A stretch of 64,000 nt of DNA. Origin: Candidatus Bathyarchaeota archaeon. Its GTDB lineage: Archaea > Thermoproteota > Bathyarchaeia > Bathyarchaeales > Bathycorpusculaceae. The notes under the pieces were generated by a model. The model worked only from the letters and a program-made list of their open reading frames with translations. It did not search any database and was not told where the DNA came from. Of the stretch, positions 4,469 to 51,871 are shown one piece after another. The DNA is taken from positions 64,001 through 128,000 of the forward strand of contig CAWGZR010000012.1 of NCBI GenBank assembly GCA_963827165.1. The letters run 5' to 3'. Made by a program: the position numbers and the translations under genes. Within the stretch, counting starts at the first letter, position 1, and each line of letters begins with the position of its first letter.

Positions 4469-5992
4469 TTGGGTTTTGAGGCTAAGTTGTGGATGACTGC
4501 CGACAAGCTGCGTAATAACATGGACGCTGCAGAATACAAACATGTTGTTTTAGGCCTAATTTTTCTCAAGTATATTTCTGATGCCTTTACAGAGGTTTAT
4601 AATGATTTGAAGAATGATAAACTCGCTGATCCTGAGGATGTCGATGAGTATAGGGCTCGGAATGCTTTTTGGGTTCCGGCTAAAGCGCGTTGGGATTTTT
4701 TGCAAAAGAACGCCAAACAGCCAACCATTGGAATAACAATGGATGATGCGATGGATGCTATCGAACGGGAAAACCCCAGCTTGAAGGGTGTTTTGCCCAA
4801 GAACTATGCCCGTGAAAGTCTGGACAAGCAGAGACTTGGAGAGCTAATCGATTTAATCGGCACCATAGGCTTAGGCGATAGGGAAAGCCGGAGCAAAGAC
4901 ATCCTCGGCAGGGTTTACGAGTATTTTCTGGGTCAATTTGCTGATGCTGAAGGCAAGAAAGGCGGCCAATTCTACACTCCCAAAAGCATCGTTCAACTTC
5001 TCGTGGCCATGATTGAACCTTTCAAGGGCAGAGTCTTTGACCCATGCTGTGGCAGCGGCGGCATGTTCATACAAAGCGAAAAATTCGTAGCCGCCCACCA
5101 AGGACGCTTAGACGACATACACATCTTTGGGCAAGAATCCAACCAAACAACCTGGCGCCTCTGCAAAATGAACCTCGCCATAAGAGGCATAGAATCAAAA
5201 GAAGTAAGATGGAACAACGAAGGCAGCTTCCTAAACGACCTCCACAAAGACCTAAAAGCAGACTATCTATTGGCTAATCCGCCGTTTAATGATTCTGACT
5301 GGAAAGGCGAAATGCTAAGAGAAGACAATCGCTGGAAATACGGCACACCCCCCGCAGGAAACGCAAACTTTGCATGGGTACAACACTTCATACACCATTT
5401 AGCACCTCATGGCATAGCGGGTTTTGTGCTTGCAAACGGCTCAATGAGCAGCAACACGTCAAACGAAGGAGAAATACGCAAAAACATGATCGAAGCCGAT
5501 TTAGTGGATTGCATGGTAGCCCTGCCCTCCCAACTATTCTACAACACAATGATACCAGCATGCCTATGGTTTGTTGCAAGAGATAAGCAAAATAATAAAT
5601 TCCGAGACCGCAGAGGCGAAGTGCTGTTTATTGACGTTCGAAAGCTTGGAGTAATGGCTGACAGAAGGCATAGAGAACTAACACCAGAAGACATCAAGAA
5701 GATTTCCGATGTTTACCATGCGTGGAGAGGAGAACGGGTAGATGGACAAGCAGTAGAATACCGAGATATTGCTGGATTCTGCAAAGTCGCAAGACTTGAG
5801 ACCATTAGGAAACAAGGACACATACTAACACCTGGACGTTATGTTGGCACTGAAGCGCAAGAGGAAAATCATGAAGAATTTAACAAGAAAATGAAGCAGT
5901 TTATCGCTGAACTTTCAGAGCAAATAGAAGAAAGCAAGAAGCTTGATGAAGAAATAATGAATAGTTTGGAAAGTATCGGATATGGCGCCTGA
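4469..5992 (+). CDS. hsdM: Type I R-M methyltransferase subunit (true start may be upstream at 4412)
   Basis: [14 protein letters not shown] and NPPF motifs. Confidence 0.97.
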
Positions 5993-7332
5993 GGACAAAG
6001 TACTTTTCAAACAAACTGAGATAGGAATGATTCCTGAAGATTGGAGAGTAGTTAGCACGAATGAAGTAGTCGCCTCAGAGAAAAATTCTTTAAAAACTGG
6101 GCCATTCGGAACCCAGCTGAAGAAATCCTTTCTTGTTGCAAAAGGCTTTAAAGTGTACGGACAAGAAAATGTTTTTCGAAATGATTTTTCTTTCGGGGAT
6201 AGATTTATACCAAAAGAAAGATTTGAGCTCTTGAAATCCTGTGAGCTGAAGCCCGGCGATATAGTTATATCCAGAATGGGAACCGTCGGCCTATCAGCTA
6301 TTGTACCTGGCAATATTCAGCAAGGAATAATGGATTTCCATCTTTTGAGGCTAAGACCTAATCGCTCAAAATTTGACGCTGAGTTTCTCCTTTACGCTAT
6401 TCGTTCCGAAGTAATCCAGAATCAGATAAACTCGCTTTCTGTCGGGACTATTATGGATGGATTGAGTTCCAAAGTGATTGGAATGCTAATGTTCCCAATG
6501 CCTTCGCTCCCAGAACAAAAAGCCATTTCGAAAATCTTAAGAAACTTTGATTCGAAAATTAAAGTCAACTCAAAAATGAACCAAAATCTGGAGTCCATCG
6601 GGCGGGCCATTTTTAGTCGTTGGTTTGTTAATTTTGAGTTTCCTAACCAAGAAGGTAAGCCCTATAAATCATCAGGCGGAGAAATGGCGGAATCAGAAAT
6701 AGGTTTAATTCCAAAAGACTGGAAAATTCTCCAAAATATTTCTGAGGCTTGCGAGTTGATAAATTATGGTTACACTCAAAGTGCCAGTAATGAGAACGTT
6801 GGTCCTCATTTTCTAAGAGTGATGGACATAAACAAAGCGGATTGGGTTAATTGGGGTACTGTTCCATTTTGTAAGATTTGTGAAAAAGACAAACCGAAAT
6901 ATTTGCTCAAAATGAAAGATATCGTTATAGCCAGAATGGCTGACCCTGGTAAGATTGCGATTTTTGAGTCAGATTTAGAAGCTATTTTTGCGTCGTACTT
7001 AATTAGAATACGTTTGAAAAACCCACATTATGGGTATTATTTTTACCATTCTTATGAAGTCGCCGTATTATCAAAATTTCATAGAAGGGGCTACTACTGG
7101 CTCAGTTCAAAAAAATCTAAATGCTAAATCGTTAACATCAAACTTACCGGTAATTATACCTAACAAGGAAGTAACTATTTTGTTTGACTCTATCATAGAG
7201 AATTTACGAGCTAAAATAAACTGCAACTTGGCAGAATCTACTACTTTAGCCAAGGTTAGAGATAGCTTGTTACCAAAACTCATGTCTGGAAAAATTAGAG
7301 TTCCTATCGATAACAAAGTGGAGTCGTCTTAA
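5982..7332 (+). pseudogene. hsdS: Type I R-M specificity subunit with a +1 frameshift near 7050
   Basis: IPEDW/IPKDW repeats, PSLPEQKAI and RDSLLPKLMSG conserved regions distributed over ORFs 5982..7127 and 7030..7332. Confidence 0.9.
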
Positions 7333-10300
7333 TGTCTTCGGTTATTACTGAGTCGCAAGTTGAAGAATCCTGTCTTGACTTATTTAGAAATCTTGGGTAC
7401 AGCGTGATTTCTGGTCCTGATATTTCTGAGGGCGGAATAGCTGAAGAACGTAAGTACTGCGAGGTTGTGCTTGTTGGCAAGGTTAAGGATGCTTTGAGGC
7501 GAATTAACAAATCCATTCCTGAAACCGCTATCGATGAGGCTGTTAAGAAGGTTTTAAGAACTGAGAGTCAGGAACCGGTGGCTAACAATCAGCTTTTCCA
7601 TAAGTTAGTAACCGATGGAGTTGATGTTCAGTACAAGCGAGAAGACGGCAGTATCAAAGATTCCAAAGTTTGGCTTTTTGACTTTAAAGACTTAAGTAAT
7701 AATGAGTTTTTGGCTGTTAACCAGTTTACGATTATCGAGGAGCGCAATAACCGGCGACCTGACATTATCTTATTCGTTAATGGGTTGCCGCTGGTTTTGA
7801 TTGAATTGAAGAATCCGGCAGACGAGGAAGCTACTATTTCTTCTGCCTTTAAGCAGTTTGGAACTTACCAGAAAGAGATTCCGTCAATTTTCCGCTACAA
7901 CGAAGTCTTAGTCATCAGCGATGGAACCTATGCGAAAGCTGGAACCATGACTGCAAAAGAAGAACGCTTTTCACCCTGGAAAACAATCAATGCCCAAAAA
8001 ACACCAAAAACCCAGCCACAAATCGAAGTCCTAACAAAGGGAATGCTTAACAAATCAACGCTCATGGATTTAATCGCGCACTTTGTTGTTTATGAAGCTG
8101 AAAAAGACAAGAAAGAAGGCACCGTCAAACTTTCTAAGAAAATCGCTCAGTACCAACAATACAACGCAGTCCAAAAAGCCCTAACATCAACGGTGAATGC
8201 TACAAAAAAAGATCGAAAAGCTGGCATTGTTTGGCATACGCAGGGTTCAGGAAAAAGCTTAACGATGGTTTTCTATACTGGGAAATTGGTTTTGAACCCT
8301 GCCCTTGAAAACCCAACGGTAATTGTGTTAAATGATAGAAATGACTTAGACGACCAGCTTTATGGAACTTTTAGTAGATGTCATGCTCTTTTGAGGCAGG
8401 AGCCACGGCAGGCAACAAGCAGGGAAGAGCTAAAAGAGCTTTTGCAAGTCTCATCAGGCGGCATAATTTTCACAACTATCCAAAAGTTTTTCCCAGAAGA
8501 CCAAGAAACAAAATATCCCCTACTATCCGAAAGGAAAAACATAATAATTATAGCCGATGAGGCGCACCGAAGCCAATACGGTTTTGGACTTAAGGTGCCA
8601 AAGAACGTTGATTCTGAAGCTCTAAAGTATGGTTATGCTAAATATCTTCGGGATGCTTTGCCCAATGCAACTTTTATTGCTTTTACGGGAACTCCGATTG
8701 AAAAGGCAGATAGAAGCACACCTGCAGTTTTTGGAAAAATAATAGATACTTACGACATTAACCAGGCTGTTGAAGATGGCTCCACGGTTAGAATCTATTA
8801 TGAGAGCCGACTTGCCAAAATCGAGCTTAAACCAGAAGAAAGACCATACATTGACCAGGAGTTTGAGGAAGTTACCGAGGGCGAAGAGTCAGCGGGCAAA
8901 GAATACCTCAAGAGCAAATGGAGCCGACTTGAAAGGCTCGTTGGCAGCCAGGAACGCATCAAACGGGTAGCCAAAGACATTGTGGATCACTGGGAGAAAC
9001 GTGTTAGCGTTCTTGATGGCAAAGGCATGATTGTTTGCATGAGCCGTCGCATCTGCGTGGACCTGCATAATGAAATAATTAAGCTCAAACCTGAATGGTA
9101 TAATCCAGATGATGACAAAGGGTACCTCAAGGTTGTGATGACTGGGTCAGCTGCGGATGGACCAGATTGGCAAGAACACATTCGCAATAAGCAGCGCAGG
9201 CATGACCTTGGGGAACGCATGAAAGACCCCTCCGATCCCTTCAAAATAGCCATAGTCCGTGACATGTGGCTAACCGGCTTTGATGCGCCAAGCCTCCACA
9301 CAATGTATCTTGACAAGCCTATGAAAGAAGCCAACTTAATGCAGGCCATCGCACGGGTTAACCGAGTCTTCAAGGACAAAAAAGGTGGTTTAATCGTTGA
9401 CTACATCGGATTAGCAAACGACCTAAGAAAAGCCCTTGCAGAATACACAGAGGACGACAGAAGACTAACCGGCATTCCGCAAGAAATGGCAATAGCCAAA
9501 ATGCAAGAAAAATACGAAGTTGTAAAGGCACTTCTTCACGGCTTTAACTTTCAAAAATTCTTCGCAGCCCCAGCAAACGAAAGAATGACCATCATGCTAG
9601 AAGCAATGGATCACATATTAAAACAGGAAAACGGCAAAGAACGCTACCTCAAAGAAGTCAACGCCTTGCTCTGGGCTTTCGCTCTCTCGGTTCCAGATGA
9701 TCAGGCTTTGAAAATTAGAGATGATGTGGGCTTTTTCCAAGCTGTGAAAGCAGCCATAATCAAGAACACTGAGACTAAATCAAGCCAAGAGCAAGACGTA
9801 GATACAGCAATAAAGCAGATCATTTCAAAAGCCATCATTAGCGACCGAGTAATCGATGTCTTCGCTGCCGCTGGACTCAAGAAACCAGATGTCTCCATCC
9901 TTTCAGAGGAGTTCTTGGAAAAAGTTAAGGAAATGCCGCAAAAGAATCTCGCCTTTGAAACCCTAAAACGTCTCCTAAATGATGAGATTAGGTTTAGGCA
10001 GAAGAAGAATCTGATTCAGGCCCGCTCGTTTGAGGCGCTGTTGGATAAGGCGATTAAGGCTTATACTAACAAAAGTGTTGAGACAGCTCAGGTTATAGAG
10101 GAGCTAATTGAGCTTGCAAGGAAAATGCGGGAAGAACAAAAAAGAAACACCGAGCTAAATTTGAGCGAAGAAGAAATCGCTTTTTACGATGCTTTAGCCG
10201 ACAACGAAAGTGCAAAACAGGTTCTTGGCGATAAAACGCTGCAGGTTATGGCACGAGAGCTTGTGGATATGGTTAGAAAGAACGTTACGATCGATTGGAC

Positions 10301-10454
10301 GCTGCGAGACAACGTTCAAGCAAAACTGCGAATCATGGTTAAACATATACTCAAAAAATACGGTTACCCACCAGATAAGCAGGAAAAAGCAACCATAACA
10401 GTTCTCGACCAAGCAAAGCTGTTATGCAAAGATTGGGCGGAACCACAAAACTAA
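7332..10454 (+). CDS. hsdR: Type I R-M restriction subunit
   Basis: [19 protein letters not shown] nuclease motif; [20 protein letters not shown] and MWLTGFDAP helicase motifs. Confidence 0.97.
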
Positions 10455-10546
10455 ACAAGTTATAATGGGGATGCAATAAGAATTGAAAGCCTCTAAAACA
10501 ATTGAGACAGCCGACTTTTGACTTGCTGCTTCAAGTGTGAAAAACC

Positions 10547-11221
10547 TTACTTGTCTACCCTGTTTAGAAAATAAATTTCTTTTATTTCTGTCCTATAGAG
10601 TTCTTCTTTATATCCTGTAATTTTTCGCATAACATTATCTTTTACTTGTCTGCATTTTACCGTAGCTGACTTGCTACCACTTATTATGTAGGTACTGGGA
10701 TTATGACTTTGAATTCTTGTAACAATTTTTGCCGCTTCCTTTGCTACATTACTATAGTTTTGTATGTAACTATTTGTTACTTCAATATTTTCAAAGAGAT
10801 GTTTAATCTCTAACGTTATCTGATCAATTGTTAAGCCCTTATCAAGAATGTTTGCAATGTATTTGCCAAAAAGCCCATTCTGAACAAATTGGGCAATATG
10901 CAAACCTTCAGCAGCATATTTTTTGACTATCCTATCTCTTAAGTGGTCACATTGGGGCTTATTTTTTTCAACTCTTCTTAGTGTTAAGCCCATTTGGAAA
11001 AGGATGTGAAGTCTTTCGTCATCAACATAATTTCGAAAAAGACCCCATTCTGATGAATTTCTTTGCTCCTTTGCAACCTCAATTGTTTCAGGATTTTGAA
11101 CAAAAGCAATTTTTCTATCTTTGAACTTGCGAGCTAGTAACTTGACTTTCTCTTCAGTCCACCCAAGTGCTCCCTCGGTTGCTCCTTTGGCAGCGCTTTC
11201 AAGAGGATCTTTAGACGCCAT
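10547..11221 (-). CDS. Hypothetical protein (AT-rich cargo)
   Basis: 224 aa ORF with GGAG RBS, overlapping the upstream gene. Confidence 0.7.
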   Translation of the reverse strand: MASKDPLESAAKGATEGALGWTEEKVKLLARKFKDRKIAFVQNPETIEVAKEQRNSSEWGLFRNYVDDERLHILFQMGLTLRRVEKNKPQCDHLRDRIVKKYAAEGLHIAQFVQNGLFGKYIANILDKGLTIDQITLEIKHLFENIEVTNSYIQNYSNVAKEAAKIVTRIQSHNPSTYIISGSKSATVKCRQVKDNVMRKITGYKEELYRTEIKEIYFLNRVDK

Positions 11222-11456
11222 CTCCGTACTCTTCCAAGTATGAGGAGATGCTCAGGGGATTATCATCTAATATTAGCGTACTTCCCGGCAGTATTGCCAT
11301 ACTCTCTATTTTTATCGGTTCACCTATGTACTTGTCGAGAACTTGTTCACCATTCTTATTCAGAACATATGTTCCATCTGAACCAAAACCAAGTTCTTCC
11401 AGTAACAAAATTTTGCAATTTACCGGCATGTCTTTCAGAGACATTATTTCAGTCAA
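11211..11456 (-). CDS. Small acidic hypothetical protein
   Basis: 81 aa ORF overlapping the downstream gene by 11 nt. Confidence 0.65.
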   Translation of the reverse strand: MTEIMSLKDMPVNCKILLLEELGFGSDGTYVLNKNGEQVLDKYIGEPIKIESMAILPGSTLILDDNPLSISSYLEEYGDGV

Positions 11457-11833
11457 TTTTTATCACTCTCTAGTAATGTATTAATTAATTCTTTTTTAAA
11501 TTATCCTATTATGACTATATAGGTTATGAATTCTGTCTCCAGTATAACCCATTTTAGTATTTGTCGTTATCGCTTTATTAGTATTTAACCGTAGTGGCTT
11601 TTTTTGACATATGGTTTCATAAAAAGTCACAGAGTGTCCCTACCTAACATAACGTTAAGGATTGTATAACCATTAAATCTATCGGAACAATGAGTTTCTG
11701 GGTAATTGCTCGACATGAATACAAATCGGCTTTGTATCTCTTATCTACTCCTGTGAATTTATCTTTGTGTGATTGTCAGAATACTATCACAGTGAATATA
11801 AAATAGTCTAACATCATTGACTATATCTTTATG

Positions 11834-12334
11834 TTATAAGGAAATGATTTGCGTTTTGTGCGGATACTTAGAATCGGCTGTTAAGTATTGCATGGAAACC
11901 GTTAATCGACTCCTGCTTAGGCTGCTTCTTATTCCATTGTTAATTTTAGTATCGCCCTTTCCCTTGCTTGCGTGTCCAAACCTAGTCACCTTCCATGATG
12001 GGGTTATCCCCTGGGTAATCCCCCGGATAATCTGGGGGTTACTGGTCAGAATATAGAAGGGCATCTTCGTCTGTGAAGTGTAGAGTTCAGCTATGAAGTT
12101 CAGTAGCCGTTTGCCTATCCCTATGCCCTGATAATCTGGTAAGACTACTAATCGACTAACCCTATAGTATCTTGATTTCATGCGGATATGTGCTACAGCG
12201 ATGAATGCAATGGGCTTATTTTGATATACTGCGGTATAACATCGGATACCTGCTCCGAGCTTGCCGTTTAGATAATGATATTGCCGAAATATCTTCCAAA
12301 GCTGAGCGCCGCACCGATGGATTTGGAGTTCCAC
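11834..12334 (-). CDS. GNAT acetyltransferase (Mom-like DNA-modification type), probably the C-terminal part of a frameshift fusion
   Basis: FRQYHYL and RVSRLVVLPDYQGIGIG acetyl-CoA-binding motif. Confidence 0.85.
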   Translation of the reverse strand: MELQIHRCGAQLWKIFRQYHYLNGKLGAGIRCYTAVYQNKPIAFIAVAHIRMKSRYYRVSRLVVLPDYQGIGIGKRLLNFIAELYTSQTKMPFYILTSNPQIIRGITQGITPSWKVTRFGHASKGKGDTKINNGIRSSLSRSRLTVSMQYLTADSKYPHKTQIISL

Positions 12335-12891
12335 GGGCGGCCTAACCCTTTTTTTCGATCAAACTCCATCGTGTCAGTGCAAAAGACCCAATCGGGATCT
12401 AGCCAATCTACGACATCATAATGGCACGTAACGGCTATGAACCTCTTTTTAGAGCGTCGAACAGCCTTGCTGATTGCAAAGGCGCTAACTTTAGCAATTT
12501 CCCGATCGACAACGCTTGTGAACTCATCAAAAACAATCAACGGCTTATCCAAGCAAAGGGCGCGGGCTATATCAACCCGCATCTTTTCGCCTTGACTCAA
12601 GCAATCATAGCTTTTTAGCCAATCAGGCGGGGAAGCAAAGCCCACACTGCAAAGCATCCGGGTGATCTCTGACGTTTCCAGAGCTTCTGGGAAATCATCT
12701 AGAACACATTTGTTTTTGTAATCAAATTCCTTAACATAAGCGTCTGGGAAAAGCTGTTTTGCTATGCTTGTTTTGCCTGAGCCGCTTCGGCCAACGATAA
12801 CGCCGACCTGCCAATCATCCGCATCTATGGGTAATGAGCCTTTGAAATGCTTCTCTAACTTAACATCAGATAGCGTGTAGCTGCCAACCAC
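12268..12891 (-). CDS. Soluble ABC-type ATPase (reading frame extends upstream to ~12948)
   Basis: GRSGSGKT Walker A, LSQGEKMR signature, IVFDEFTSVVDR Walker B, CHYD H-loop; no permease nearby. Confidence 0.9.
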   Translation of the reverse strand: MVGSYTLSDVKLEKHFKGSLPIDADDWQVGVIVGRSGSGKTSIAKQLFPDAYVKEFDYKNKCVLDDFPEALETSEITRMLCSVGFASPPDWLKSYDCLSQGEKMRVDIARALCLDKPLIVFDEFTSVVDREIAKVSAFAISKAVRRSKKRFIAVTCHYDVVDWLDPDWVFCTDTMEFDRKKGLGRPWNSKSIGAALSFGRYFGNIII

Positions 12892-12929
12892 ACTTTGAGC
12901 ACGAAAGCTATCAGCTTGATCCCAACGCT

Positions 12930-13499
12930 TTACAATGTCAAAATCCGTAGCTTATACCCCTCCAGCTTGAGCTTATCAAAGATGCTTTTCTGATCGGCTT
13001 CATCTTGGCATTCAACAATGATTTCGTAGGTTGAAGGAATAGTTGCTGAAAAGTTATCTTCATCCGACTCCTCGGGCAGTTTCTCGCCTAAAGACTCCAA
13101 TAGTGCTTTTAGATCGTCTTTTTCGCCCATCTGAAGCAACCGTACGTACTCAGCGGTGTCTAATTCTTTATTGTGTTTGCCTTTCAGCTTGTTGAGGATT
13201 TGGCGCAGCATTCGCCGGTCAACGTCAGTAACGGGCAGACGTAGAACGGGCGCAAAGAATTCTCCATGCTGCTTGCAAACTACAGCCCTTTGCTCCCCGT
13301 CGGCGTAGACGCCGTCTTTGTTAGCTATAATCGGATATGCCCATCCGTACTTCTGCAGGCTATGCCAGACCTGCTGTTGCTGCTTAAGTGTCATGCGATT
13401 TGGATTATCTTGGTCTGTTGTTAGAAGACGAATATCCTCTACCAGTTGAAGGTAGGCTTCCGGTACTTTGATCGTAGTTTTATTTTCCATAAACTCCAC
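12930..13499 (-). CDS. ParB/Srx-like N-terminal domain protein
   Basis: NPN...SLQKYGWAYPII...DGEQR...LNKLKG pattern typical of phage ParB-like proteins. Confidence 0.75.
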   Translation of the reverse strand: MEFMENKTTIKVPEAYLQLVEDIRLLTTDQDNPNRMTLKQQQQVWHSLQKYGWAYPIIANKDGVYADGEQRAVVCKQHGEFFAPVLRLPVTDVDRRMLRQILNKLKGKHNKELDTAEYVRLLQMGEKDDLKALLESLGEKLPEESDEDNFSATIPSTYEIIVECQDEADQKSIFDKLKLEGYKLRILTL

Positions 13500-13935
13500 T
13501 TCCCGTTAAAACCTTGGCCAATTCTTCATTGAAAGGTTCATTCTTAGCAAGTTCGTTTTCAATTTCAGCTGCTCTTTTAGAGGCATCTTGCTTCTCCTTA
13601 ACTGTTTCAAGCCCTAGTAAAGTCACAAGCCGATCCGTTATGTCCACCATTCTTGAGAGGAAAATTGGCTTCTGGGCTTCGTTTGCTGTTTGAAAATGAA
13701 GGCTGGCGGTGCGATAGAGATAGTCATAACGGTTTACGAGTATAAGCCGAGCTTTATCCAGGTCAAAGAGCTGGGTTAAGACAGGTTGCCAAGTCTCGCG
13801 GGTTTCCGCGTCATAGTAGATATTTCTATCTGACGTTTGGAATTTTTCGCTCAGCAGCTTCACAATCTCACAGAGGGAGAAGCCTTTAGCTTCGAGCTTT
13901 AGAAATTCCAGGCGTCTTTCAACGACTTCACTCAA
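13480..13935 (-). CDS. HTH protein, terminase-small-subunit-like
   Basis: ERRLEFLKL..KGFSLCEIVKLLSEKF.TSDRNIYYD HTH followed by a helical C-terminus. Confidence 0.5.
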   Translation of the reverse strand: MSEVVERRLEFLKLEAKGFSLCEIVKLLSEKFQTSDRNIYYDAETRETWQPVLTQLFDLDKARLILVNRYDYLYRTASLHFQTANEAQKPIFLSRMVDITDRLVTLLGLETVKEKQDASKRAAEIENELAKNEPFNEELAKVLTGSGVYGK

Positions 13936-14723
13936 GCAAAATCCTCCAAAATTGAAACCCGGATTTCAAAATCGCTATAGTTTGTGGTTCGCCTCAGCAT
14001 ATCGCCTTCCAGCTTTACTTCTCGGCGATGCTGCTCTGTTAGGAAGCAGTAGGGTTTCTCAAAGGTTGGAAGGTGGTATTTTCTGCAGATTTTGAAGTAG
14101 GCTTCCACTATCTCGAAAATGTCGCTGTCGGGGAAACACTCTTGAAAAGCTTTGATGTTTGGGGCACGGTTCCAGTTATAGGTTAAGTGCCAGTAGAGAC
14201 GCAGACAGATCTTCTCGTATTCGGTAGCTTGCTTTTGCAAGACATCCACTTTATCATAAATCACTTTCATTTGCAAAAGTGCCTGAACGAAGGTCCTTCT
14301 TTTAGGGTTTTCGCGTGCTTTAGCTATGTTAATTTGGTAAGGTTCTTCGGGTTCTTCGTCCCATTCCTGCCCAAGCATTTTTGCCTCTTCTTGTGACTGA
14401 GGGTACTTCTCAAGCAGGTATTTTCGGGTTTTAGCGTATGTTACCATGATTTCCCATTCGGCACCAGACATTAACGAAAGGTCGTTGCCATCTTCGTCTA
14501 AGACTTCAGGCCACAACTGCTTTAGAGTAAAATTGTTGGGATCTATGCCCTCTTTCTTAAGCTTCTCAAGGACCTCAGCTGATAATGAAGCACTTAATGG
14601 CTTCTGCTCATTTTGGGAATGTTCTCTTATCTTTTCCTTGAAATCTTCAAACATGTTTTCTCTCTTACTTTGGATTTTTCCTGTTGCCAGCATTCCTTTC
14701 CTTTTGCTTTGCTCTTTGCTCAC
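13932..14723 (-). CDS. Hypothetical protein
   Basis: 263 aa ORF with a 4-nt overlap with the next gene. Confidence 0.7.
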   Translation of the reverse strand: MSKEQSKRKGMLATGKIQSKRENMFEDFKEKIREHSQNEQKPLSASLSAEVLEKLKKEGIDPNNFTLKQLWPEVLDEDGNDLSLMSGAEWEIMVTYAKTRKYLLEKYPQSQEEAKMLGQEWDEEPEEPYQINIAKARENPKRRTFVQALLQMKVIYDKVDVLQKQATEYEKICLRLYWHLTYNWNRAPNIKAFQECFPDSDIFEIVEAYFKICRKYHLPTFEKPYCFLTEQHRREVKLEGDMLRRTTNYSDFEIRVSILEDFA

Positions 14724-14943
14724 GTTTTACAATTCGCCAATATTTGCGGATCTCAGGTGAATGCTTGAATGCTTTCACAGTGTCCATGACAGAGGATTTT
14801 GAGCTTGTAGCTTATGAATAGCATATAAAATTTTTTAAAATAATCTTCTTGACGAACTAAGTATTAATCAAAAAGTTAAATTCAGAATATTCCGTTTAAG
14901 CGCCATTACCTAAAAGAAAAAGAACTCTAAAAAATTTTAGGGT

Positions 14944-16323
14944 CTACAATCTAAGTAGATATTTGTCCTCGCTTAATGTTTGCAACAAGCTCCATCCATC
15001 ACCAAGCTTCTTCATTAGCTCGGTTTCTCCTTTTGCAACTGTGTACTTTTTCTGTTGAGGTATAGGCCTATTGTGTTCACTTGTTGGTTTAGATTGCGGT
15101 TTAACTTCTTCTCCCGACTCTTGTTCGTGTTGATCATTATCGTCTTTAAAGCGTCTGAACTCAGTGATTGCTTCCTCAGGGTCTTTTGATCGCTGTAAGG
15201 CATCTTCTAATTTCTTAAGTTGGTCTACTCCGTAACCGTTAAGTTTAGCAAAGTCCAGCAGCATTTGACTTCTAAGCTTCTTCTCATCCAATACTCGAGC
15301 ACCTTCATGCAAAAACTCAAGGTCAGGAAGAGCCTGTTTATACTTTGCACGAAGTTGTTCAATTAGTGGCTTCGAATAAGGTGCTTCTTCACCGCTAACT
15401 TTTCTGCCTTTAATTTTCTTAATCCAGTTGTTAGAACAGCCAGCGTTTTCTAAAGCAGTTTGAACAATCCTTCGCCCATCATGGAAAGTAAAATCAACAT
15501 TTGCTCTTTGCTCAAGCATTGTTGCTTTCTTGGCGATAATGCGGTAACTCAAAGGCTCTCCGATATTGCGTTTAACTGATAAGAATACGTAGTCGTCATT
15601 TGTCCACTTATGATTAAATGTGGTTTCCATCCATCGCCTGTATTCAATTAGTACTTTTTTTGCTTCAGGTGTTAGGAAGGTTTCTTGTTTTACTCCTCGA
15701 TACTTTCCTTTGCCATGACCTTTAATCATGTCAGAGGGCAAAGATATGTGGGGAATCTCTTGCGTTTGCCAATCCGCTTCAAAGTGTGAGAAACGAAGTT
15801 TTGAGATTGACTCTATCGCTATCGCCGAGGTTGTTCCTAACATAACTAATGCTTGGTCTCTGGGGTTTCGACATGCTTTGAACAGTGCTAAACGATTTTC
15901 TTTAGATGGCACAGTTTGGCTTTCATTTTGTATATAAGGCATTGACCGCCCAGCTTGAGCTTGTAGCTGCTTATAGTTAGTTCTGAAGAATCCTCTCACA
16001 CATTGAGCCACATGCCACTTGCGTCCTTCTGGAAAATTGACTTTTGCGTTAGATAGACTGTCGAGTAGCTTCTCTGCGTCTAAGCTGTTAGAATCCTTTT
16101 TCAAATCTAGGAGGCCATTAGGGTCTAAGTGTGACCACGTGCAGAAGTGATAGAGCGACATGGCTACATTGCCTTGTCTATTATTGAGTTTTCCGAGATA
16201 GTTCATCACGCATTCATAGTTTTTTGCCCAACCGTCGATGATCGTGTTTTCCGTGTAACCATACTTTAAATTCTTCTGCTTGTCTTTTATTATACTCATG
16301 ACCTCGCCACTCTCAAGCAACAC
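14944..16323 (-). CDS. Tyrosine recombinase/integrase (likely start ATG 16299)
   Basis: RDQALVML, K (IKGHGK), FHDGRR and a C-terminal Tyr (APYS). Confidence 0.85.
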   Translation of the reverse strand: MLLESGEVMSIIKDKQKNLKYGYTENTIIDGWAKNYECVMNYLGKLNNRQGNVAMSLYHFCTWSHLDPNGLLDLKKDSNSLDAEKLLDSLSNAKVNFPEGRKWHVAQCVRGFFRTNYKQLQAQAGRSMPYIQNESQTVPSKENRLALFKACRNPRDQALVMLGTTSAIAIESISKLRFSHFEADWQTQEIPHISLPSDMIKGHGKGKYRGVKQETFLTPEAKKVLIEYRRWMETTFNHKWTNDDYVFLSVKRNIGEPLSYRIIAKKATMLEQRANVDFTFHDGRRIVQTALENAGCSNNWIKKIKGRKVSGEEAPYSKPLIEQLRAKYKQALPDLEFLHEGARVLDEKKLRSQMLLDFAKLNGYGVDQLKKLEDALQRSKDPEEAITEFRRFKDDNDQHEQESGEEVKPQSKPTSEHNRPIPQQKKYTVAKGETELMKKLGDGWSLLQTLSEDKYLLRL

Positions 16324-16494
16324 CTTGTATAGCTTTACCTATATTAATGATACTATTTGTATAGCTTCTCCCAAAACATTAAACATCAAAGCGTTAGGCG
16401 CATCGTCTGGGTACAAGCACGTGGAATCTCACTTCGCCCACGTACATCGAACCCTAACGAGGGAAATTGCAGTGTTTGAAAAGGTGCAAAACAA

Positions 16495-17418
16495 ATGAGT
16501 ATCCGCGTGGTTTTCCTAGGAACAAGCGGCAGCGTGCCAACTCTTAAGCGGAGTTTACCCAGCGTAGTCATCGTTTGCCCACGGCAAATGTGGATGTTTG
16601 ATTGCGGCGAAAATACGCAGCGGCAAATGATGCAAGCAAAAGTAAGCTTCCACAAAAAACTAAATGTTTTCCTTACACACCTCCACGGAGACCATGTACT
16701 TGGATTGCCCGGAATTTTGCAGACGATGGCGCTGATGGACCGCAAAGAACCTGTCCAGATTTACGGTCCGCCAGGCATCAAGAATTTTTTAGTTTGCACT
16801 AAAGAAACGCTTAATTTCGGTTTAACTTTCCCCGTAGAAATCAACGAAATCCTTTCTGAAGGCACCATTCTCAATGAGGAAGAGTACAGCCTGATAGCAG
16901 CAAAATCAAATCACGCCGTTGAAAGTTATGCTTACGCTTTTGTAGAGAAGCCACGGCCAGGAAAATTCTATCCCAAAAAAGCGCAAGCACTTGGAATTCC
17001 TTTGGGCGAATTATGGTCTAAACTTCAAAACGGCGAAGAGATTACATTGGCTGATGGCAGATGGATTAAGCCAAACGATGTGATGGGTCCCCATAGACCT
17101 GGAAGGAAAATCGTTTACACAGGCGACACAAGACCATTTGACGTCTTTGCCAAATTCGCTGCAAACGCTGACTTAGTGATTCATGAAAGCACTTTTGACG
17201 ACGCGTTAGCTGAAAAAGCCCAGTTGGATGGGCATTCAACCCCGAGCCAAGCTGCGGCAGAGACTAAAGCGGCTGGGGCTAAGCAGTTGGTTTTGACACA
17301 TATCAGCGCACGATACCCTGACGCCACGTTGCTGCTTGAGCAAGCGAAAAAAGTCTTTGCAAATACGCTGGTGGCTGAGGATTTCATGAAGCTTGATTTG
17401 CCGCTTAAATCAAGCTAA
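16495..17418 (+). CDS. rnz: Ribonuclease Z
   Basis: FLGTSGSVP, DCGE, THLHGDHVLG, YTGDT, HEST, GHST and THISARY motifs. Confidence 0.96.
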   Translation: MSIRVVFLGTSGSVPTLKRSLPSVVIVCPRQMWMFDCGENTQRQMMQAKVSFHKKLNVFLTHLHGDHVLGLPGILQTMALMDRKEPVQIYGPPGIKNFLVCTKETLNFGLTFPVEINEILSEGTILNEEEYSLIAAKSNHAVESYAYAFVEKPRPGKFYPKKAQALGIPLGELWSKLQNGEEITLADGRWIKPNDVMGPHRPGRKIVYTGDTRPFDVFAKFAANADLVIHESTFDDALAEKAQLDGHSTPSQAAAETKAAGAKQLVLTHISARYPDATLLLEQAKKVFANTLVAEDFMKLDLPLKSS

Positions 17419-18197
17419 GCGAGAAGCTGTTTGAGTTTGTGGAGGGTTTCATTAACGTCGGTTACGGATTCGATCATTACAGTTTTGTCATAGCCAGTTT
17501 TGTTTATGGTTTGTTTGAACCACTCGTAGTCGATTTTGCCTTTTCCTACGCCCTTATGCTGGTCGTCTGAGCCGTCGTTGTCGCTTGCGTGTATGTGAAC
17601 GATTTTGTCGGCTAGCAGGTTGAAGAAGGGTTCTATTTGGTCTTCCAGGTAGGCGTGCCCCAGATCTAATGTGATGCCTAAGGGAAGGTTGGTTTCACGG
17701 TAAAACCGCATGAACTCTTCGGGTTTATGCATCAGAAACCAGTATTTACCTGGCAAATTTTCCAATGCGATATTTAAGCCGTATTCTTCCGCTGCCTCGT
17801 AGAGTTTTTTGATGCTTTCGACGTTTTGTTTCCATTCGGCGCCTGGGTAAAATTGGCTGATGCCTGTTTTCGCGCCAGGATGGAAAACCCACACTTTGGC
17901 ATCCAATTCGTTTGCGTAAGCCATCGATTGTTTGAGGCGCTTTAGTGAGGCATCTAAAATGCTTTTGGATGGGGAAGCAATATTGATGTCGGCGAAGGGC
18001 GCGTGCAAAGTAAATTCCAAGTTGAGGCTTTTTGCTGTCTCTTTGAGGGCGGCTACCCTTTTCTTGCTGAGCTCATGGATGCCATCATCCACGATTTCGA
18101 TGTACCGTGTTTCCATGGTGTTTAAGCGTTTAACCATACGGTTGAAAGGTTCGCCTAAGCAAAAAAGCATTGAAACGCCAACTTTAGCCTTTGACAT
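17415..18197 (-). CDS. Sugar phosphate isomerase/epimerase (AP endonuclease 2 TIM barrel)
   Basis: HAPFADINIAS, LENL, LDLGHA and HIHASDN...DQH motifs. Confidence 0.85.
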   Translation of the reverse strand: MSKAKVGVSMLFCLGEPFNRMVKRLNTMETRYIEIVDDGIHELSKKRVAALKETAKSLNLEFTLHAPFADINIASPSKSILDASLKRLKQSMAYANELDAKVWVFHPGAKTGISQFYPGAEWKQNVESIKKLYEAAEEYGLNIALENLPGKYWFLMHKPEEFMRFYRETNLPLGITLDLGHAYLEDQIEPFFNLLADKIVHIHASDNDGSDDQHKGVGKGKIDYEWFKQTINKTGYDKTVMIESVTDVNETLHKLKQLLA

Positions 18198-51698: not shown

Positions 51699-51871
51699 TG
51701 GTGGGGCCGGCCGGATTTGAACCGACGACCTTTACCCAAGAACGGCGCGAAGCCGTTCTTTACGGGTTTCTCTAGACACGCTCCAGAACTTCGTCATTCC
51801 TCTGGGCGAGGTCAGCAAACCCGTTGCTTGCTTCTGGAGCCCGTCGTCATACCTGTCTAGACTACGACCCC
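51699..51871 (-). tRNA. trnW: tRNA-Trp(CCA) with two introns (37/38: 51768-51833; 43/44: 51732-51761) and encoded CCA end
   Basis: GGGGTCG/CGGCCCC acceptor stem, ACGGG-CTCCAG|A-CCCGT anticodon arm, GTCGG-TTCAAAT-CCGGC T arm; 77 nt after removing both introns. Confidence 0.93.
51768..51833 (-). ncRNA. Intron-encoded box C/D-type guide RNA
   Basis: ACGGGTTTG+CTGA (D'), ATGACGA (C'), and TTCTGGAGC antisense to the anticodon loop. Confidence 0.75.

Follow-up and report, generated by a model that had tools for sequence, protein, structure and literature searches.

The 64,000-nucleotide stretch analysed here (the window; positions 64,001 to 128,000 of contig CAWGZR010000012.1 from a Candidatus Bathyarchaeota archaeon) carries on its minus strand an ABC-type ATPase gene that overlaps, in the −1 frame, an open reading frame (ORF) for a GNAT acetyltransferase, and the best explanation of this arrangement is a programmed −1 recoding site within one ancestral ABC-type ATPase–GNAT gene of the phage family phrog_11143. 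The frameshift site is well supported by the comparison of related loci and unproven at the bench; we hold programmed recoding of some kind to be highly probable, and ribosomal −1 frameshifting at this locus to be moderately probable. Coordinates of all features are collected in Table 1, and papers cited by PMC number are cited for excerpts of their text.

Organization of the ATPase/GNAT junction

Read on the minus strand in the ATPase frame, the junction is ...GAT CGA AAA AAA GGG TTA GGC CGC CCG TGG..., which translates as ...EFDRKK GLGRPWNSKSIGAALSFGRYFGNIII* with the run phased A_AAA_AAA, and the ATPase ORF comprises 181 amino acids (aa) up to the run and a 26-aa tail that ends at a TAA (12270–12268). 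From the A run, the −1 frame translates as KKRVRPPVELQIHRCGAQLW... (RVRPPVELQIHRCGAQLWKIFRQYHYLN... when the reading is begun at the last A of the run) and remains open for 171 codons up to a stop at 11834; the predicted trans-frame product has 352 aa. Pfam assigned the upstream ORF to ABC_tran (9.3e-10) and the downstream ORF to GNAT (Acetyltransf_1/7/10). The arms of a hairpin, GCCGC-CCG-UGGA and UCCA-(U)CGG-(U)GCGGC (12341–12308), start 7 nt after the run. A preliminary description of this DNA had given these coordinates, the heptamer, the 7-nt spacer and the arms, all of which are exact on the minus-strand reading, and its statement that a −1 shift leads into the GNAT ORF agrees with the 171 open codons. 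The standard heptamer/spacer/stimulator geometry that it had also claimed was found as well: ribosomal −1 signals place a structure 5–9 nt from an X-XXY-YYZ site (PMC8211752), and the window has X_XXY_YYZ in the 0 frame, a 7-nt spacer and a stable hairpin. Because the window contains 56 A7 runs versus 83 expected from shuffles, such a run by itself is unremarkable, and it is phase, position and conservation that give this one its significance.

In the mechanism that we propose, ribosomes translating the ATPase frame would arrive at CG-A AAA AAA-G with the hairpin, 7 nt further on, sitting at the mRNA entrance. Some of them would slip back one base, with both Lys-tRNAs re-pairing perfectly with AAA, and would enter the GNAT frame to produce the 352-aa ATPase–GNAT fusion, while those that did not slip would read 26 more codons and stop, producing a 207-aa ATPase without GNAT.

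Conservation of the split arrangement

We assembled 99 related loci: besides that of the window there were 80 genome loci, 13 close viral ones and 5 additional copies in the window's own genome. The genome loci were found in a scan of species-representative genomes at 62–91% identity, almost all in metagenome-assembled genomes (MAGs) of Bathyarchaeota/Bathyarchaeia and often several per genome, and in the window's own genome (3.13 Mb) a trio of ParB-like, ATPase and GNAT genes was present at 8 places with 57–100% identity. A locus counted as intact when its ATPase was open to the run, its −1 ORF was 150 codons or longer and its 0-frame tail measured 24–28 codons. By this filter 79 of the 99 loci were intact, the other 20 showing truncations, extra frame breaks elsewhere or a contig edge.

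All 79 intact loci carried NNA AAA AAA in the ATPase frame and the GNAT in the −1 frame. The codon before AAA AAA was CGA in 52, AAA in 16, AGA in 6, CAA in 2, and ATA, GTA or TTA in 1 each, that is, six different residues with A as third base throughout (79/79), and Lys codons elsewhere in the same genes were AAA 1040 times and AAG 847 times (55% AAA). Because the same −1 arrangement occurs in every intact locus, the A7 split is, on this comparative evidence, neither a sequencing or assembly error nor a pseudogene; the homopolymer error that had been raised as a possibility in the preliminary description is thus argued against, the copies at own-genome places included.

Run length is not scattered, and the intact loci share one out-of-frame state despite saturated synonymous divergence, with both ORFs intact and under purifying selection. 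This speaks against DNA-level phase variation, in which a mutable A tract would act as an on/off switch, and against a decaying gene with a fixed frameshift or assembly error, a reading that we regard as very improbable even though homopolymers are mutable, rare in-frame variants exist (the viral locus L105, with A10, and the fused protein P0122) and the 20 remaining loci are degraded elsewhere. The database relatives of the ATPase point the same way: of 7141 found at E ≤ 0.001, the best 120 (81–89% identity) were 195–282 aa long, covered the 0-frame tail and had no GNAT domain.

The GNAT frame as a continuation of the ATPase

The GNAT frame has no conserved start codon of its own. A stop in the −1 frame lies 2–3 codons before the run end in 70 of the 79 intact loci, and the first ATG, GTG or TTG of the −1 ORF lies upstream of the run in 6 loci, at +1 in 3, at +5 in 1 (the window only), at +16 to +19 in 51 and at +31 or later in 18. 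An independent GNAT start at GTG 12334 was considered and rejected, this GTG being unique to the window. Two separate overlapping genes, with the GNAT translated alone from that GTG or, in relatives, from an ATG near +19, perhaps by coupling to termination, would fit the +5 GTG of the window and the 51 loci whose start lies near the 0-frame stop. We give this arrangement very little credence, since no relative shares the GTG, 18 loci have no start before +31, the residues from +1 onwards are conserved and homologous to fused relatives, and the invariant in-phase A run and the frozen A before it would be left unexplained.

The conserved residues from +1 read R-x-R/H-P-x-I/V-x-L-x-V/I-x-x-C...L-W...F-R-Q-Y-H-Y-L-N, the most distant copies included. 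Within the overlap, the third codon position of the GNAT frame is the second of the 0 frame. Entropy there was 0.666 / 0.367 / 0.742 for GNAT codon positions one to three, which is how a coding −1 frame should rank; were the 0 frame alone coding, the highest variability would fall on its second position. Both ORFs matched phrog_11143, the ATPase at positions 30–195 (3.7e-57) and the −1 product, from its second residue after the run, at positions 197–353 (2e-31), and because these matches are colinear the two ORFs are two halves of one family. The window thus has the two-domain colinearity of phrog_11143 and lacks its single uninterrupted ORF, the frame changing at 12349–12355.

Among 447 database candidates of at least 304 aa, 117 were single-chain two-domain proteins at E ≤ 0.001. 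The closest fused relative, P0122, has the junction ...EFARKKRVMPPVELKVYRCG..., in agreement with the trans-frame prediction for the window, ...EFDRKK-RVRPPVELQIHRCG..., whether reached by a −1 shift or by one extra A. An AlphaFold model of P0122, for which 46 fused relatives were used, had a mean predicted local distance difference test score (pLDDT) of 86.9 and a predicted template modelling score (pTM) of 0.81, and in this model the Lys-Lys junction appears as a short linker from the last ATPase strand to the first GNAT strand. A PDB fold search with P0122 matched HlyB-NBD (ABC nucleotide-binding domains) and a GNAT separately and found no two-domain analogue. On the protein, PADLOC gave generic ABC-like matches only (mad3), and NCBIfam gave generic ABC transporter models only, far under their cut-offs.

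Constraint on synonymous sites

Nucleotide-level constraint was evaluated in 55 stem-bearing genome loci, using 80 four-fold sites at conserved residues of both ORFs. The median entropy of these sites was 1.70 bits, that is, synonymous sites are close to saturation across the gene. Only 8 of the 80 fell below 0.15 bits, namely the A before the run and GNAT codons 3, 4, 5, 7, 11, 13 and 21. The frozen A is the last base of the Arg codon that precedes the run and doubles as the first A of the heptamer. GNAT codons 3–4 (CCG CCC) and 11–13 (CGG TGC GGC) coincide with the two complementary arms of the basal stem. At the shift site itself, selection goes beyond what the protein needs, with the preceding A frozen while the residue varies and AAA AAA present in 79/79 loci.

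Conservation and folding of the hairpin

The window hairpin folded at −23.2 kcal/mol in ViennaRNA, with 4 of 200 shuffles folding equally well. The basal stem was present in 61 of the 79 intact loci, and the stem alignment contained 53 distinct sequences. In these, the spacer had no length indels and a variable sequence, and the 8 basal pairs were invariant save for two C-to-U changes, which kept a G-U pair, and five G-to-A changes, which broke the innermost pair. The 6 apical pairs were imperfect across the alignment, and the window is in a different register there. The −1 overlap, the A run and the hairpin arms, for which the preliminary description had looked to homologues, are all three retained in close ones. 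Folding energies 3′ of the run were −13 to −26 kcal/mol in stem-bearing loci versus −3 to −9 kcal/mol in distant A9 genome loci.

A pseudoknot between loop UCCAAA and a downstream UUUGGA, which are complementary by eye in the window, was rejected, as it would leave no linker across the 15-bp stem and relatives do not preserve the pairing. A metagenome pattern scan with both stem arms returned at least 119 matching stretches, and among the matches listed 112 were unrelated and GC-rich, 1 was a chance A run and 6 were family members, all with A7.

Maintenance of the 0-frame stop

The 0-frame stop is supplied by the Leu codon of the GNAT motif HYL, which gives TAA or TGA in 79/79 loci. This codon is CTA in 55 loci, CTG in 16, TTA in 4 and TTG in 4; elsewhere in the same genes, CTT and CTC account for 865 of 2067 Leu codons. 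The TTT, TAT and TAT before it are invariant, and Phe and Tyr codons are about evenly used elsewhere. The 0-frame tail has 26 codons in 76 of the 79 loci and 27 in 3, and its C-terminus, G-x-I-x-I-stop (12268–12300 of the window, minus strand), is preserved in stem-less lineages too. Since this end is kept without the hairpin, a second constraint acts here besides the hairpin. The pattern of the stop and the codons before it suggests that the unshifted 207-aa ATPase is itself a selected product and not a mere by-product.

The proposal that the site sets the ratio of free ATPase to ATPase–GNAT gains support from the maintained stop. ABC ATPases function as dimers, and both products would plausibly be used, as mixed ABC dimers with fewer GNAT than ATPase domains.

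Origin of the split and run length

A search of IMG/VR yielded 56 viral loci. Of the 13 with at least 70% ATPase identity, 12 had the GNAT in −1 at A7 or A9 and 1 (L105) was in frame at A10. In all 42 distant loci (38–54% identity) the GNAT was directly downstream in the same frame with no stop between, and none of the 42 had a junction A run longer than 5. In-frame fusion homologues without the stem, which the preliminary description had named as a case against it, are thus confined to distant phage relatives. Because these relatives have neither stop nor long A run, the split is a derived state that has since been maintained.

Three viral loci stand apart. L105 (6520–6560) belongs to an A9 clade and keeps both its domains intact. 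In L069 the spacer is longer by one C, which puts the locus in frame, with the GNAT truncated. L106 (56% identity; 6440–6560) has the GNAT in −1 without an A run, only GGTTTTTC being present near the junction, and may be a homopolymer error or use a different shift site.

In a tree rooted on the in-frame relatives, the split forms were one group. The basal split branches (L072, L076–79 and L097–L104) had A9 without a hairpin, and a crown clade of 63 rows (98 in the Shimodaira–Hasegawa-like approximate likelihood ratio test, SH-aLRT) had A7 and the hairpin, with three A9 stem-less rows nested in it. Within the tree set, every A7 locus (57 of 57) had the stem, as did 2 loci with A8 and 1 with A9; A9 was the run length of all 15 loci that lacked it. 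The independent contrasts of run length against stem, 3 of 3, agreed in pairing A7 with the stem and A9 with its absence. In E. coli Mg-chelatase cassettes, apparent frameshifting was 10% with A7, 40% with A9 and 63% with A11 (PMC3711429); as frameshifting rises with run length, it is plausible that A9 lineages need no stimulator and A7 lineages need one.

Joining these lines, we tentatively consider it possible that a single virus gene family exchanged its means of recoding, from a single ORF through an unaided A9 split to A7 with a GC hairpin, and that its products form asymmetric ABC dimers together with the ParB-like protein. If so, the A9 stage would have been largely polymerase slippage or unstimulated ribosome slippage, and the crown clade would have moved to stimulated ribosomal −1 frameshifting, with one or two lineages going back to A9 without a hairpin. 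A fixed ratio of ATPase-only to ATPase–GNAT chains would then give dimers with a single acetyltransferase, acting beside the packaging genes of Bathyarchaeia tailed viruses.

Proposed ribosomal frameshifting and the alternatives

Several observations weigh against a ribosomal shift stimulated by the hairpin. The z-score of the window hairpin is just −1.98. Compensatory double changes were sought in the 14 pairs and found in none (0/14 in the 53 sequences), the covariation score was 0.095 versus 0.086 in shuffles, with 17 of 500 shuffles reaching it, and RNAalifold retained 7 invariant pairs with a covariation term of −0.04, so that the covarying stem envisaged in the preliminary description did not appear. 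The frozen sites are in principle confounded by the overlap being read in two frames, and frozen codons 5, 7 and 21 and TTT/TAT/TAT fall outside the stem. The link of A7 with a stem and A9 with none is consistent but thin, with three contrasts and a sign test p = 0.25. Finally, an extra A from RNA polymerase would yield an identical protein, and in the Mg-chelatase cassette study A_AAA_AAA without a stimulator reportedly reached about 10% apparent frameshifting in E. coli, the mechanisms not being separated.

Dual coding hardly explains the frozen arms, because stem-less lineages keep the same GNAT residues with freely varying codons (for example CGA CCC CCA; AGG/AGA; CCA/CCC/CCG) and, over the first ~19 residues, the 0-frame tail of one such lineage bears no relation to that of another. 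The simplest reading of these patterns is that the arms are kept by selection on an RNA hairpin. The inverted repeat might instead be a DNA site, for example one recognized by the ParB-like protein or the terminase, that stands beside the A run by chance and is no RNA stimulator: the arms are invariant and not covarying, and the gene lies between ParB-like and packaging genes in viral relatives. Such a site, however, would hardly be expected to have its spacing to the heptamer fixed at the ribosomal-stimulator optimum, to be lost exactly where the run is A9, or to vary in its arms (2 of 53 aligned sequences) by a C-to-U change that still leaves a G-U pair at the RNA level, and we consider it highly unlikely.

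Programmed transcriptional slippage, in which the archaeal RNA polymerase would add one A in some transcripts and so create a single-frame fusion, with the hairpin irrelevant or otherwise used, appears unlikely to us for the window, although it would give the same product as the −1 frameshift and +1A forms exist (L105, with A10 in frame, and P0122, an A8-like fused protein). The basal lineages, with A9 and no hairpin, are within the 'An, n > 7' realignment range and exceed the A/T run of > ~7–8 associated with polymerase slippage, a length that the window and 57 relatives, with exactly A7, do not reach (PMC3711429). The window clade has A7 only, and in every A7 locus a strong hairpin follows at 6–7 nt, the classic ribosomal spacing; nor does slippage predict complementary arms frozen at synonymous sites. 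Furthermore, known slippage-stimulating hairpins sit upstream of the run, in the nascent RNA, and the present one is downstream. We infer that slippage at this locus is ribosomal rather than transcriptional, and that the hairpin is the stimulator.

Comparison with known systems

The dnaX gene of E. coli has an A_AAA_AAG heptamer with an upstream Shine–Dalgarno (SD)-like element and a downstream stem-loop. The window resembles it in the A-rich Lys-Lys heptamer, in the hairpin a few nucleotides downstream and in two products, predicted in the case of the window, that share an N-terminal ATPase part at a set ratio. In dnaX, however, shifted ribosomes stop almost immediately and the shifted product is the short one, whereas in the window it would be a long fusion; the dnaX heptamer ends in G and that of the window in A, the host of the window is archaeal, and upstream the window has GGAG. 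The dnaX tau/gamma −1 frameshift is mentioned in PMC1851650. The SD-like GGAG (12364–12367, minus strand) lies inside ATG GAG, 8 nt 5′ of the heptamer; this Glu codon is GAG in most loci, with GAA commoner elsewhere in the genes (634:522), and the element may stimulate shifting from upstream, as its dnaX counterpart does, or may be there by chance.

The fucA1 α-L-fucosidase of Saccharolobus solfataricus is likewise archaeal and has an A-rich heptamer, a putative stem-loop, overlapping ORFs and full-length homologues elsewhere, but it is split in some strains only, and in its relatives, which are full length, the run has one A fewer (PMC8211752), while the split of the window is a conserved state over 79 loci with saturated synonymous sites. 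In the Mg chelatase of Methanocaldococcus, Methanococcus and bacteria, a poly-A site (A_AAA_AAR) under purifying selection joins two ORFs, fused homologues exist and run length differs between lineages (PMC3711429, PMC5009743). That is another protein family and a cellular gene, for which the cited excerpts describe no hairpin trade-off, whereas the family in the window has short-run lineages with a hairpin and long-run lineages without. The tail assembly chaperones G/GT of tailed phages and haloarchaeal tailed viruses share a conserved −1 shift that gives short and C-terminally extended products, and occur in archaeal viruses, A_AAA_AAC included (PMC5009743); they belong to the tail module, whereas the present family adjoins ParB-like and terminase genes and its extension is an enzyme domain. 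Finally, the fused-protein family phrog_11143 / 'ABC-type ATPase with predicted acetyltransferase domain' is matched by the window ORFs colinearly in both halves and has the same ParB-like neighbour, but outside the Bathyarchaeia-associated clade its members are single in-frame ORFs without an A run (42/42).

In Archaea, −1 frameshifting is known or has been proposed for fucA1, the haloarchaeal-virus G/GT chaperones and Mg chelatase (PMC5009743, PMC8211752). The statement of the preliminary description that few archaeal cases are documented accords with a 2021 review, the cited excerpt of which counts one experimentally reported archaeal −1 programmed frameshift, that of fucA1 (PMC8211752). 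Our literature search found no description of a frameshift in an ABC-ATPase–GNAT gene, and the main text of the Bathyarchaeia virus paper, supplements aside, does not mention ParB, GNAT, ABC, acetyltransferase, frameshift or slippery. The site would add a comparatively well-supported archaeal case, with dozens of diverged copies, a saturated synonymous background and a clear in-frame outgroup. It belongs to an archaeal lineage that is widespread and uncultured and to the viruses of that lineage, and recoding is not known from its gene family. Current annotation, as a separate 'ABC transporter ATP-binding protein' and GNAT, would mislabel a virus or provirus gene that has several copies per genome. 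With A7 accompanied by a hairpin and A9 lacking it, the family is a natural experiment on the trade-off between run length and RNA structure.

Genomic context

The ParB-like gene adjoins ATPase/GNAT at the 8 own-genome places, in the archaeal viral contigs L094, L101 and L103 and in the bacterial phage L118; the integrase is found, among own-genome copies, at the window copy only (Table 1). Together with three further ORFs, these genes form an island of ~6 kb (10547–16323), in which no terminase or portal gene was found. No convincing flanking direct repeats were found around 10300–17600. The island resembles the remnant of a provirus or a small integrated element. The host is very probably a Bathyarchaeia archaeon, as judged from the RNase Z gene that flanks the island and from an intron-bearing tRNA elsewhere in the window.

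Table 1. Position of the proposed recoding site and of neighbouring features in the window
Feature	Position	Strand	Basis or remark
Slippery heptamer A_AAA_AAA	12349..12355	−	ATPase-frame phase CG[A AAA AAA]
Spacer GGGUUAG, 7 nt, heptamer to hairpin	12342..12348	−	sequence read
Hairpin: basal stem GCCGCCCG / CGG(U)GCGGC plus apical UGGA/UCCA specific to the window	12308..12341	−	ViennaRNA
0-frame ORF, ABC-type ATPase, 207 aa	12268..12891	−	ABC_tran, phrog_11143
−1 frame ORF, GNAT acetyltransferase, 171 codons	11834..12349	−	Pfam, phrog_11143
Overlap zone, both frames read	12268..12348	−	codon-position entropy
ParB-like gene, constant upstream neighbour of ATPase/GNAT	12930..13499	−	PHROG matches
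Tyrosine-type integrase, end of ~6-kb island	14944..16323	−	Pfam Phage_integrase 26.4 bits (cut-off 27.1), PHROG integrase matches
Type I restriction-modification operon, complete (HsdM, HsdS, HsdR)	4469–10454	+	adjoins island
RNase Z	16495–17418		other flank of island; 87% identical to Bathyarchaeia MAG proteins

In L094, L101 and L103 the ParB-like gene is followed by ATPase/GNAT, then by one to three small ORFs, large terminase and portal. In L118 the order is HNH, ParB-like, fused ATPase–GNAT, two small ORFs, a second fused ATPase–GNAT, small terminase, a small ORF and large terminase. The ATPase/GNAT gene in this soil archaeon is virus-derived. The two fused genes of L118 (4681–7941), with the two small ORFs between them, encode 366 and 367 aa, and from this gene pair ATPase–GNAT may act as a pair of unlike chains.

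Two of the own-genome copies (G000 C10:404850–405471 and C5:28936–29557) have an ATPase broken by TGA stops and retain the A7 run and the hairpin; the element is multi-copy, and these two copies are in decay. In the window, the ATPase frame is open for ~20 codons 5′ of its GTG start (12892–12951, minus strand; open frame 227 aa), and many ATPase relatives are annotated at 221–226 aa; translation may in fact begin 5′ of this GTG, close to where the ParB-like gene ends. Elsewhere in the window, for which ARAGORN reported no tRNA, Rfam matched a tRNA across 170 nt (51702–51871, minus strand) versus a model of 71 positions, which points to an intron in the archaeal style.

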